A DNA stretch of 64,000 bases from Octopus sinensis (lineage: Eukaryota). The notes under the pieces are model-generated. The model was not told where the DNA came from and searched no databases. It saw only the letters and a list, made by a program, of their open reading frames with translations. A program made the translations under genes and the position numbers. Shown here in pieces: positions 15,751-51,951 of this stretch (within the stretch, counting starts at the first letter, position 1; each line of letters begins with the position of its first letter). The DNA is taken from assembly GCF_006345805.1 (NCBI RefSeq), contig NC_043013.1, forward strand, positions 22,878,001-22,942,000, given 5' to 3'.

Positions 15751-16310
15751 GGCAGCGAGCTGGCAGAATCGTTAGCACGCCGGGCGAAATGCGTAGCCGT
15801 ATTTCGTCTGTCGTTACGTTGTGAGTTTAAATTCCGCCGAGGTCGACTTTGCAGGGTCGATAAATTAAGTACCAGTTACGCACTGGGGTCGATCTAATCG
15901 ACTTAATACTTATGTCTGTCCTTGTTTATCCCCTCTATGTTTAGCCCCTTGTGGGTAATAAAGAAATAGGTATTTCGTCTGCCGTTACGTTCTGAGTTCA
16001 AATTCCGCCGAGGTCGACTTTGCCTTTCATCCTTTCGGGGTCAATAAATTAAGTACCAGTTACCCACTGGGGTCGATATAATCGGCCTAAACCGTTTGTC
16101 TGTCCTTGTTTATCCCCTCTGTGTTTAGCCCCTTGTTGGTAGTAAAGAAACAGGTATTTCGCCCGTTGCTACGTTCTGAATTCAAATGCCGCAGGTGTCA
16201 ACTTCGACTTTCATCCTTTTCGAGAGTTGATAAATAAAGTACCATTTACACACTGGGTTCGACTGACTTAACCCTTTCCCCGAAATAACAGTGCCAAAAT
16301 TTGAAAACTT
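15749..16310 (+). mobile_element. Family-1 SINE multimer (one full head plus two head-less repeats)
   Basis: Unit restarts at ggtatttcg after each aaagaaa(t/c)ag tail (15969, 16153). Confidence 0.88.
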
Positions 16311-21774: not shown

Positions 21775-22360
21775 ATCTATGTCTTTATTGCCCACAGGGG
21801 GCTAAACATGGAGGGGACAAACAAGGACAGACAAGGGATTAAGTCGATTAGATCGACCCCAGTACATAACTGGTACATATTTAATCGGCCCCGAAAGGAT
21901 GAAAGACAAACTCGACCTCGGCGGAATTTGAACTCAGAACGTAACGGTAGACGAAATAACTATTTCTTTACTACCCACAAGGGTCAAAACACAGAGAGGA
22001 CAAACAAACGGATCAAGTCGATTATATCGACACCAGTTCGTAACTGGTACTTATTTAATCGACCCCGGAAGGATGAAAGGCAAAGTTGACCTCAGCAGAA
22101 TTTGAACTCAGAACGTAACGGTAGACGAAATACCTATTTCTTTACTACTCACAAGGGGCAAAACACAGAGGACAAACAAGGACAAACGGATCAAATTGAT
22201 TATATCGACCCCAGTGCGTAACTGGTACTTATTTAATCGACCCCGAAAGGATGAAAAGCAAAGTCGACCTCGGCGGAATTTGAACTCAGAACGTAGCGGC
22301 AGACGAAATACCGCTAAGCATTTCGCCCGGCGTGCTAACGTTTCTGCCAGCTCGCCGCCT
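21775..22360 (-). mobile_element. Family-1 SINE trimer
   Basis: Three successive tail plus central units with a single tRNA-like head at ~22310-22360. Confidence 0.88.
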
Positions 22361-25717: not shown

Positions 25718-26022
25718 CAAAATAATTTATTCCACCTTTAATTTATGAATAGTTTATTCATATCTGCAAATGAAACAAGTGGAACACGAGGAAACTATCG
25801 ATGGTTTATCACGGGGAGTATTAAGTATAAAAAGTCCTTAGAAATGAATAAATTCCTGATGGCAAAATAATTTATTCCACCTTTAATTTATGAATAGTTT
25901 ATTCATATCTGCAAATGAAACAAGTGGAACTCGAGGAAACTATCGATGGTTTATCACGGGGAGTATTAAGTATAAAAAGTCCTTAGAAATGAATAAATTC
26001 CTGATGGCAAAATAATTTATTC
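25718..26022. repeat. 145-bp tandem duplication
   Basis: Units start at 25718 and 25863 (one substitution seen); caaaataatttattc recurs at 26008. Confidence 0.95.
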
Positions 26023-48505: not shown

Positions 48506-48928
48506 AAGAACACCAATAAGATTAAGCAGAATTATTATATCCTGTGTTTCTTAAGGTTGTTGGATGTGAATTGAAGGAGATTTAGCTATAAAGTAAATCT
48601 GACCCCATAAAAACAAAGAAATCAGTGACAGGCAAAGTCTGTAACAATGTATATCTTCTTGAAAAGCTTAGTAACTACTATGCAGGAGCAAGAACTGAAT
48701 GTTCTTTGTCTATCTCCTTAACTTCTTGGAGATTTTAGGTATAATTATAGTAATGTGTCCATCTGTTCTAATTTAATTAAATTCTATGTTTTTGAGAAGC
48801 TGAAGATTGCTCTGCATCTTAAACTGATGTAATGATTGCATTGTTCAATTAAATGGAGTTGCATGAAATGATCGTACTGCATTACCTCTAGATATCTTTG
48901 TTGCTTATTTTGATTTTAATCATATATA

Positions 48929-48981
<53 letters not shown>

Positions 48982-49191
48982 GGCAAAAAAAAAAATTTTG
49001 TAGAATTTTTTGCCACCAGCGGCCTAGTGGGAAAAATTAAATAGTCATAGACCATTTTTAAGTTCAACATCAACAATCAAGGAACGGCCATAATAGGCCA
49101 TTCACCCACTAGAAATAACAGCCAAAGCTTCAACCGCAAATAAAAGTCAATTCCGTAAACAGGAGAAAATTTAAAAAACATTTACCCTGTA

Positions 49192-49298
49192 ATTTCTTAT
49201 ACGATGCACCGTTTCATCTGCTGTTTAATGGTAAACTAATCTGATTAAATTAAATCAAGCCAATCTTCCATAGGCCCTCAGATTCTTCAGTAAGAAAT
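49192..49298 (-). ncRNA. Type I hammerhead ribozyme A (long stem II), inverted copy
   Basis: Reverse complement of 49339-49445 with one substitution. Confidence 0.85.
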
Positions 49299-49338
49299 AG
49301 CCACAAGTCGGAACAGATATCTGTTCCGACTTGTGGCT

Positions 49339-49445
49339 ATTTCTTACTGAAGAATCTGAGGGCCTATGGAAGATTGGCTTGATTTAATTTAATCAGGTTA
49401 GTTTACCATTAAACAGCAGATGAAACGGTGCATCGTATAAGAAAT
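49339..49445 (+). ncRNA. Type I hammerhead ribozyme A (long stem II)
   Basis: auuucuua CUGAAGA aucug[long hairpin]cagau GAAA cggugcaucg UA uaagaaau; predicted cut after A49437. Confidence 0.88.
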
Positions 49446-49830
49446 TACAGGGTAAATGTTTTTTAAATTTTCTCCTGTTTACGGAATTGACTTTTATTTG
49501 CGGTTGAAGCTTTGGCTGTTATTTCTAGTGGGTGAATGGCCTATTATGGCCGTTCCTTGATTGTTGATGTTGAACTTAAAAATGGTCTATGACTATTTAA
49601 TTTTTCCCACTAGGCCGCTGGTGGCAAAAAAATTCTACAAAATTTTTTTTTGCCACCCTATATTGATTAATTATGAATTTTCTGGTTAATTCCGTAATGG
49701 AATCGACGGCTTATATTTATTTGCTGCCGATAAATTTGGCGCGAGTGCGATGATTTGAAAATTTTAGGTCAGATATTACCTTGGCAGGGTCGGAGATGCC
49801 TCGTGAAAATATATGTTCCGACTTGTGGCT

Positions 49831-49937
49831 ATTTCTTACTGAAGAATCTGAGGGCCTATGGAAGATTGGCTTGATTTAATTTAATCAGGTTAGTTTACCA
49901 TTAAACAGCAGATGAAACGGTGCATCGTATAAGAAAT
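49831..49937 (+). ncRNA. Type I hammerhead ribozyme A, second tandem copy
   Basis: Same sequence as 49339-49445, 492 bp downstream; predicted cut after A49929. Confidence 0.88.
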
Positions 49938-50056
49938 TACAGGGTAAATGTTTTTTAAATTTTCTCCTGTTTACGGAATTGACTTTTATTTGCGGTTGAA
50001 GCTTTGGCTGTTATTTCTAGTGGGTGAATGGCCTATTATGGCCGTTCCTTGATTGT

Positions 50057-50124
<68 letters not shown>

Positions 50125-50350
50125 GTATAATTAATCAGTTTAGGGTAGCAAAAAATTCAGTAAAAATTTATCGCTACCAGCGGCCTAGTGGAAAAGAGAA
50201 AATAGTCAAAGACTAAATATGTATAAATATAACAATTTAGGAATGGCCTAAACAGGCCATTCGTCCACCAGAAAGAGCAGCCAGAACTCCAACCGCCAAG
50301 TAGTGTAATTCGGAAATAAGGTGAAAATTTAAAAACATTTACCTAATTCA

Positions 50351-50451
50351 TCTTTTATACGATGCATCGTTTCAGTGTCTTTAATGATAGACCAGCTTAA
50401 TTAAATTAAATTAAGCTAGTCTACCATAGGTCACACTTCATCAGTAAAAGA
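50351..50451 (-). ncRNA. Type I hammerhead ribozyme B, inverted copy
   Basis: Reverse complement of 51207-51307. Confidence 0.87.
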
Positions 50452-50732
50452 AACCTGGGAGAGACGGATATACACGAGGCAACTGTATCAATGCCTCGGG
50501 AATATCTGTCTTAAAATTTTCAAGACCAACGCATTCGCGCCAAACTTATCGGCAGCAAATATAAACTGCCGATTCAATCTCAGAATTAGTCAGAAAATTA
50601 TCAATTAATCAATTTAGGGTAGCAAAAAATTCAGTAAAAATTTATCGCTACCAGCGGCCTAGTGGAAAAGAGAAAATAGTCAAAGACTAAATATGTATAA
50701 ATATAACAATTTAGGAATGGCCTAAACAGGTT

Positions 50733-50833
50733 TCTTTAACTGATGAAGTGTGACCTATGGTAGACTAGCTTAATTTAATTTAATTAAGCTGGTCTATCAT
50801 TAAAGACACTGAAACGATGCATCGTATAAAAGA
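50733..50833 (+). ncRNA. Type I hammerhead ribozyme B
   Basis: ucuuuaa CUGAUGA agugu[long hairpin]acacu GAAA cgaugcaucg UA uaaaaga; one stem I mismatch; predicted cut after A50826. Confidence 0.83.
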
Positions 50834-51206
50834 TGAATTAGGGTAAATGTTTTTAAATTTTCACCTTATTTCCGAATTACACTACTTGGCGGTTGGAGTT
50901 CTGGCTGCTCTTTCTGGTGGACGAATGGCCTGTTTAGGCCATTCCTAAATTGTTATATTTATACATATTTAGTCTTTGACTATTTTCTCTTTTCCACTAG
51001 GCCGCTGGTAGCGATAAATTTTTACTGAATTTTTTGCTACCCTAAATTGATTAATTGATAATTTTCTGACTAATTCTGAGATTGAATCGGCAGTTTATAT
51101 TTGCTGCCGATAAGTTTGGCGCGAATGCGTTGGTCTTGAAAATTTTAAGACAGATATTCCCGAGGCATTGATACAGTCGCCTCGTGTATATCCGTCTCTC
51201 CCAGGT

Positions 51207-51307
51207 TCTTTTACTGATGAAGTGTGACCTATGGTAGACTAGCTTAATTTAATTTAATTAAGCTGGTCTATCATTAAAGACACTGAAACGATGCATCGTA
51301 TAAAAGA
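51207..51307 (+). ncRNA. Type I hammerhead ribozyme B, second tandem copy
   Basis: ucuuuua CUGAUGA agugu...acacu GAAA cgaugcaucg UA uaaaaga; predicted cut after A51300. Confidence 0.88.
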
Positions 51308-51425
51308 TGAATTAGGGTAAATGTTTTTAATTTTCACCTTATTTCCGAATTACACTACTTGGCGGTTGGAGTTCTGGCTGCTCTTTCTGGTGGACGAATG
51401 GCCTGTTTAGGCCATTCCTAAATTG

Positions 51426-51473
<48 letters not shown>

Positions 51474-51951
51474 ATATACATACACACACACACACACACA
51501 CACACACCATACATACATATAAAGAAATATACAGAATTATCTGTAAGTGGAACAGTAAAAATATGCAATGCTTTTATTAAGTTTAAAATGTGACTGCGTT
51601 TCTGTAATCTCCATTCCAACGGTGAGGCTTTGTGTCTTTGTTTGAAACCCGCTTCTTCCTGAGAGGAAGAATTTAAATAATTGAAAACAGAAGAGATCAT
51701 CCATCCATAAATACATACATACTGACGTGCACACACACACAACACACACACCACACACATGGGTGCGGGCGCGTACACACCCACATATGTGAATATATCG
51801 CCTTCTGTTGAGAATAATTACCAAAACTCTCAGGAGACTAAAAAATATACAAACTTATTTAGATGTGCAGAAGCATATATAATAATGCTCAGGCGTGTGT
51901 GTTTTCTGGTTTTGTATGTATTTCTACGCATATATACATGTGTGTTTGTAT

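Follow-up and report, generated by a model that had tools for sequence, protein, structure and literature searches.

In the window, by which we mean the whole 64,000-nt stretch of Octopus sinensis DNA analysed here, there are six complete type I hammerhead cores, carried by two families of young, non-coding tandem repeats that we call A (cores at +49347, +49839 and -49290) and B (cores at +50740, +51214 and -50444). Each repeat unit has a complete core, a palindromic stem III and a stem II of 64-68 nt, and we consider it probable that these ribozymes cut in pairs, as predicted, with the likely help of a 3-5-bp clasp between a CC in stem II and a GG in stem I. The element belongs to a known class, and the structural variant is new. 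The core, the helices and their covariation, the fixed GG and CC, and (TA)n-flanked arms with two fixed 3′ ends and no open reading frame can be read directly from the DNA. The hammerheads and their parts are as follows.

49200-49290, reverse strand: family A hammerhead, inverted copy, from core to cut site
49330-49334, forward strand: 5′ strand of the distal part of stem I (Ib) of A, predicted partner 49447-49451
49335-49338, forward strand: GGCU of A in the 5′ strand of stem I; the stem II bulge is its proposed partner
49339-49346, forward strand: 5′ strand of stem Ia of A, partner 49438-49445
49347-49353, forward strand: catalytic box CUGAAGA of A
49354-49421, forward strand: 68-nt stem II of A, with IIa (49354-49358 with 49417-49421), internal loop and distal hairpin (49366-49409)
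49361-49364, forward strand: GGCC in the stem II internal loop of A, its CC at 49363-49364
49422-49437, forward strand: GAAA box, near-palindromic stem III and GUA triplet of A; predicted cut after 49437
49447-49456, forward strand: ACAGGGUAAA of A, its GG predicted in stem Ib, not in the bulge contact
49839-49929, forward strand: second forward copy of the family A hammerhead, with its predicted cut after 49929
50358-50444, reverse strand: family B hammerhead, inverted copy
50740-50826, forward strand: family B hammerhead adjoining the inversion junction, with AGGU kept and the upstream CCC lost
51200-51206, forward strand: CCC of B (stem Ib, predicted partner GGG at 51315-51317) and AGGU (proposed bulge partner)
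51214-51300, forward strand: family B hammerhead, with core 51214-51220, 64-nt stem II 51221-51284, GACCU bulge 51226-51230 and palindromic stem III; predicted cut after 51300

All six copies have the CUGAnGA, GAAA and NUH boxes in order, together with stems I-III. The helices described in a first-pass annotation of this DNA, along with the UAAUUU loop common to both families, the CCU...UAAA internal loop and AGGGUAAAUG, are each found where it had placed them, and the extended stem II that it had put at about 65 nt is 68 nt long in A and 64 nt long in B. It had also claimed that every helix changes sequence between A and B but keeps its pairing. Changes on both sides of a pair are indeed seen in stem IIa (four of five pairs) and in stem Ia (two), but the distal hairpin has only one; the remaining differences among its 19 pairs, as read from the sequence, are seven one-sided changes, all through G-U, and an A-A mismatch in A. 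Stem II folds better than its shuffled versions in both families (z -5.40 in A and z -7.88 in B, with none of 200 shuffles as good), while its antisense has no fold excess in A (z -1.24) and still folds in B (z -5.24). The 10.1-11.1 pair in the window is A-U, not the usual G-C. An Rfam scan of the window returned no hammerhead model at the gathering score, nor at E≤10, and Craig et al. 2021 (PMC8557442) describe a permitted spacing of 7-17 nt between core boxes, which bears out the earlier expectation that searches for short stems overlook this design. Weak Rfam matches to miRNAs in the window were set aside, as they arise from the inversion palindrome and TA runs.

The window holds further hammerhead-like sequences. 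A third long-stem motif (48800-48876, forward strand), which has an altered base after GAAA and relatives at two other loci (L261 and L305), ends about 45 nt short of the (TA)n that bounds the family A insertion on its left. Another family is represented by two back-to-back 51-nt hammerheads (+19652 and -19945), whose stem III is palindromic and whose stem II is moderately long, and has a relative in L275. Tandem repeats with units of 184, 174 and 145 nt lie at 15853-16262, 21777-22312 and 25718-26022.

The units that carry the hammerheads are 492 nt long in A and 474 nt in B, and share 367 identities over 498 aligned columns. Their longest ATG frames encode 40 and 33 amino acids, respectively, and the units are therefore non-coding. 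Each insertion consists of an inverted, 5′-truncated arm and a forward tandem arm placed back-to-back, with (TA)n on the flanks.

48922-48977: (TA)n microsatellite, left end of the family A insertion
48978-49320, reverse strand: family A inverted 5′-truncated arm; 3′ end about 226 nt past the predicted cut, joined to (TA)n
49317-50060, forward strand: forward arm of family A, with about 1.5 copies of the 492-nt unit and its 3′ end 131 nt past the predicted cut
50059-50121: (TA)n between the A and B insertions
50129-50730, reverse strand: inverted arm of family B, whose 3′ end is about 230 nt past the predicted cut
50727-51427, forward strand: forward arm of family B, made of the 474-nt unit; its 3′ end, with TA-like microhomology, is about 145 nt past the predicted cut
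51427-51482: (TA)n, right end of the family B insertion

A genome search gave 908 (A) and 1332 (B) first-look candidates, numbers that are not copy numbers; the best 40 of each were scored, and nearly all are 99-100% identical. In G000:C16:42581351-42597821 there is a long unbroken tandem array of the family A unit, of about 16 kb. From 60 loci we obtained 18 distinct two-armed insertions in which both outer ends are visible, and 17 of these have one short and one long 3′ end joined to TA (short, 131 nt past the predicted cut in A and 137-145 in B; long, 226-243 nt in A and 227-234 in B). These 17 thus combine the inverted 5′-truncated copy, the (TA)n target and the defined 3′ ends of Penelope-like insertions, the first two of which are described for Penelope-like elements in PMC8557442. 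The insertion shape in (TA)n is the footprint of a Penelope-type retrozyme, and the non-coding units, which are arranged in tandem, carry one type I hammerhead apiece and have dispersed copies elsewhere, show the make-up of non-LTR retrozymes.

We searched the genome for related families with core-box patterns, using the reversed sequence as a control (695 vs 2, 235 vs 12 and 1099 vs 0 matches). One further pattern (636 vs 9 in the control) fixed GGC and GCC, so that the clade it recovered is no evidence for the conservation of these letters, and two more deliberately enriched ACC variants. The 327 distinct sequences at 85% form 49 clusters, 29 of which come from two or more loci; three of the 29 were left out for an absent anchor (two medoids lacking the CC and one junction copy), which leaves 26 family medoids. 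Covariation was scored for 21 pairs against a tree-based null with 400 simulations per pair. The scoring used anchored columns, since a MAFFT alignment does not bring the upstream GG of different lineages into register. The first-pass annotation had proposed a covariation analysis of many genomic copies as a check, and across the 26 families both stems do covary: pairs of stem I with p 0.005-0.08, and pairs 2-4 of stem IIa with p 0.002-0.057. Stem II spans 40-78 nt in all 26 families, and restricting it to 8-38 nt gave only six matches in the genome, all internal deletions of long families. The 10.1-11.1 pair is G-C in six families and mismatched in 12, where cleavage may be slowed; according to PMC3088659 a U-U is tolerated at this position, and many of the published Hydra hammerheads have it (PMC8557442 File S2). 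A search for other stem III types with 12-nt spacing (31 matches vs 6 in the control) returned mostly chance matches or mutated copies. Four loci (L169, L190, L194 and L195) hold more hammerhead-like cores, from unrelated families whose 50-65-nt stem II regions have multiple helices.

Stem III is palindromic with at most one mismatch in all 26 families, in which it takes 12 different sequences. As a hairpin it is worth -0.2 kcal/mol in A and -1.0 kcal/mol in B, and as a dimer -17.5 and -18.7 kcal/mol. Penelope hammerheads are described as having a stem III that is weak as a hairpin and stable as a dimer (PMC4209133; PMC6765202), and A and B have the palindromic stem III of this dimeric type. 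In the minimum-energy fold of the A circle the hammerhead is not formed.

The GG that we propose as the partner of the bulge CC belongs to the 5′ strand of stem I and precedes the core by 7-10 nt in the 26 families. The two strands match as GGCU/GGCC in A, AGGU/ACCU in B and UGGC/GCCA in the D families, and both strands of the match differ between B and D. The GG/CC pairs themselves are invariant through anchoring and give no covariation. Of the pairs that flank them, one is canonical in 24 of 26 families (19 C-G, 3 U-G and 2 U-A; p 0.52), its change from C-G to U-A amounting to about one event, and the other is Watson-Crick in 21 (11 A-U and 10 U-A; p 0.022, uncorrected among the 21 pairs), while the outer pairs are found in no more than 11 and 16 families. 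The inner flanking pair is also canonical in 33 of 35 representatives gathered with neither GG nor CC fixed (42 clusters, minus five that were chance matches or had cut flanks and two lacking the CC). In a larger set of 50 representatives (59 clusters at 90%, minus nine with junction-cut flanks, a shifted core or absent anchors), the upstream duplex is more stable than one with the Gs downstream of stem I in 39.

A prediction was written down before the flanks of 40 places from the 235-match search were fetched, and these gave 42 copies. The upstream GG was present 7-9 nt away in 36 copies (one of them perhaps by chance at a junction), the CC in 38 and a downstream AGG in one, and the upstream duplex was the better one in 33. 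The prediction of GGC failed for the largest new family, which has GGU instead and a five-pair AGGUG/CGCCU match with a wobble; GGU also occurs in four of the six intact ACC variants. There are further departures from a perfect match: one amplified subfamily has a G-A mismatch beside the CC, and one G of the upstream GG often lengthens stem Ib in predictions (mean unpaired probability 0.52). Contigs of four further sequencing runs list no common variant at GG or CC and added little. From these sequence comparisons, the bulge CC is likely clasped to the GG on the 5′ strand of stem I by 3-5 bp.

Conservation of the GG, the CC and the long arm could also have a cause other than base pairing. They might be a signal for binding or packaging by a helper reverse transcriptase, or stabilize a circular RNA, in which case the ribozyme would be slow, minimal and dimeric like other Penelope hammerheads, which cut poorly in vitro according to PMC4209133. 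This explanation would account for the weak covariation at the clasp, for the conservation in sequence of GGUAAA as well, and for the long stem II without GG/CC in an autonomous Hydra-type family (see below). Against it stand the paired replacement of the flanking letters (U-A/A-U; C-G/U-G/U-A; and, in two families, G-C) and the matched distances of the GG and CC from the core (Spearman 0.46, in the 50 representatives, which are related and not independent), and we regard it as less likely than the clasp. As an observation of its own, GGUAAA followed by a U-rich run is kept in sequence directly 3′ of stem I in all families, and the Hydra 3′ flanks published in PMC8557442 File S2 have a comparable A-run, GUU and U-run. 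This stretch may be a protein-binding signal, a reading that its low complexity weakens.

The distal hairpin of stem II is paired in 97.5% of 237 cells among 17 sequences of the A/B lineage, and in at most 52.6% when the strands are slid. Its covariation score was reached by nine of 500 shuffles, and one of its 14 pairs shows a double change in these 17 sequences. Across the 50 representatives, which as related sequences are not independent, we counted 91 G-U against 14 A-C in the hairpin, and the sense strand folds better than the antisense in 40. The hairpin might instead be a by-product, either of a DNA palindrome or of A-to-I editing fixed by reverse transcription, that arose without selection on RNA structure. 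Foldbacks are frequent in A/B insertions, most of the G-U pairs alternate with A-U, and double changes are few, as such an origin would predict. Nevertheless, the excess of G-U over A-C and the greater stability of the sense strand exclude a strand-neutral palindrome, and no family with a short stem has been amplified. Editing as the source of the G-U bias was considered and rejected: young copies, sampled for their resemblance to the ribozyme region, show no A>G excess (10 A>G and 15 T>C in A; 7 and 21 in B), and editing written back into DNA is thus not supported. A by-product origin is accordingly very improbable. We conclude that the distal hairpin is maintained as RNA structure, free in length and sequence, and held mostly through G-U wobbles, so that it can fold on the sense strand only; the earlier suggestion of selection on RNA structure agrees with the pairing kept on the RNA strand.

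The tertiary contact had originally been sought elsewhere, in a possible pairing of the CCU bulge with the AGG just 3′ of stem I. An AGG is present in both A and B, the two rival duplexes tie in family B at -4.6 kcal/mol, and the downstream duplex is the better one in nine of the 50 representatives, mainly ACCC variants of the B lineage (-6.7 vs -2.9 kcal/mol in the ACCC subfamily). Yet most families have CCA or no AGG, the outer pair of this contact is canonical in five of 26 families with zero covariation, and the single AGG among the 42 new copies speaks against it as well. If the register is shifted, so that the G or A of the bulge faces the U of GGU, the pair is canonical in 23 of 26 families, but it depends on an invariant U and is a wobble in 20 of the 23. 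The distance between the cut and the downstream GG varies over 9-18 nt, in contrast to the tight 7-10 nt of the upstream GG, and predictions place the downstream Gs in distal stem I, paired with the upstream strand (mean probability 0.69 in the 50 representatives, 0.67 in A and 0.99 in B). Pairing of the bulge with the downstream AGG is the least probable of the readings considered here, and the upstream GG is the better partner for the CC. The original interpretation thus stands in its hammerhead with a long, conserved stem II and falls in its CCU/AGG partner, and it had overlooked the palindromic stem III and the Penelope-type insertion.

The kind of enzyme that could mobilize A and B is suggested by an abundant autonomous Penelope family of Hydra type, a broken copy of which lies beside one locus (L304:4266-6660, in G000:C7). 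The encoded protein has DKT, LKDHK and YRDD motifs as in the alignments published in PMC8557442, and, by eye, a GIY-YIG-like region at the C terminus; Pfam RVT_1 matches it at E 0.005 only. There are 16326 first-look candidates for this family, the best 150 of which were scored, and another locus (L334) retains an open frame of at least 623 amino acids. Like A and B, the family has (TA)n at two fixed 3′ ends, about 49 or 201 nt past its cut, and its stem II is long (55 nt); otherwise it has in common with A and B only a 13-nt motif (E 2.2), and its hammerhead lacks GG/CC. We consider it a plausible kind of helper, as distinct from a demonstrated partner. A tblastn search of the window with Hydra-type proteins found no match, and a genome DNA search with the 3′ region of A found A copies only and no autonomous partner. 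A GIY-YIG fragment beside L140 and other open reading frames near the loci were rejected as mere neighbours without a link.

For one Penelope-type element tested in vitro, PMC11167929 reports that reverse transcription begins inside the RNA and that ribozyme cleavage is not needed. An internal start fits 3′ ends of A and B that do not coincide with the cut, and reverse transcription independent of cleavage calls for caution on the role of the ribozyme in A and B. In four sequencing runs that are only presumed to be RNA, contigs cover the unit and join its end to its start, a pattern that tandem DNA gives as well.

A and B resemble the metazoan non-LTR retrozymes described in PMC7229834 and bioRxiv 10.64898/2026.07.22.740005, which also consist of tandem non-coding units of a few hundred nt with low GC (36%) and one type I hammerhead per unit, and for which movement by Penelope-like elements has been proposed. 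They differ from these in the 40-78-nt stem II with an internal loop, in that the classical loop 1-loop 2 motif is not seen, and in the back-to-back arms with two fixed 3′ ends; moreover, A and B are known here from DNA. For Xenopus retrozymes, the latter source reports eight of nine dimers uncut in vitro.

The hammerheads of Penelope-like elements (PMC4209133; PMC8557442 File S2) are likewise of type I with a palindromic stem III, frequently have a mismatch at the base of stem II, and occur with (TA)n targets and an inverted 5′-truncated copy. In contrast to A and B, the Hydra hammerheads listed in PMC8557442 File S2 have stems II of 3-7 pairs with loops of 3-10 nt, and tertiary contacts were not recognised in the accounts of Penelope hammerheads in PMC4209133 and PMC8557442. 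The length has some precedent in the loops 2 of 29-35 nt listed in PMC8557442 for two spike-moss PLE-X elements, and the same source marks spacers of 35-50 nt as half cores.

The proposed clasp is closest to the pseudoknotted hammerheads of Perreault et al. 2011 (PMC3088659), in which a short helix also links stems I and II and, in the type II forms, uses the bases right after the 10.x strand, where the CC lies in A and B. As stated there, about 40% of hammerhead representatives use pseudoknots, which raise their rates. In those ribozymes a terminal loop or a free tail serves as one of the partners, whereas both partners of the putative A/B clasp are internal loops, with 3-5 pairs only, in a dimer-type ribozyme borne by a repeat. 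PMC10085705 deals with permuted forms and is not applicable here. Within the open full-text literature, outside which subscription papers lie, we found nothing on the A and B families, nor any account of a natural hammerhead whose internal loops are clasped to each other.

A mechanism consistent with these features would run as follows. The long AU/GU-rich hairpin would stand in for loop II and close an internal loop that presents the CC. The downstream GG would pair back as distal stem I, and the clasp between the CC and the GG upstream of the core would hold stem I parallel to stem II, in the manner of the pseudoknots of other hammerheads. Both clasp strands lie on the CUGAnGA side, so the clasp could survive the exchange of strands in the dimer. 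The dimer would then cleave after GUA, multimeric transcripts would be cut to units, and a Penelope-like enzyme, for which the Hydra clade is the most plausible source, would copy the units into (TA)n.

A wider proposal, which we hold only tentatively and with more doubt than confidence, is that A and B belong to a large clade of hammerheads that Penelope elements have carried for a long time, with a kissing contact of two internal loops (through the GG of stem I and the CC of stem II) and a long free hairpin in place of loop II. Such ribozymes would cut fast at the Mg2+ levels of cells and escape short-stem searches, and they may explain elements reported with half cores. The length of stem II in A and B also shows that descriptor and Rfam searches undercount the hammerheads of animal genomes when this stem is long. 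Published accounts portray Penelope-type hammerheads as minimal ribozymes that are slow in vitro and have no recognisable tertiary contacts. If the conserved clasp between internal loops is real, at least one Penelope clade would have a tertiary stabilization of its own.
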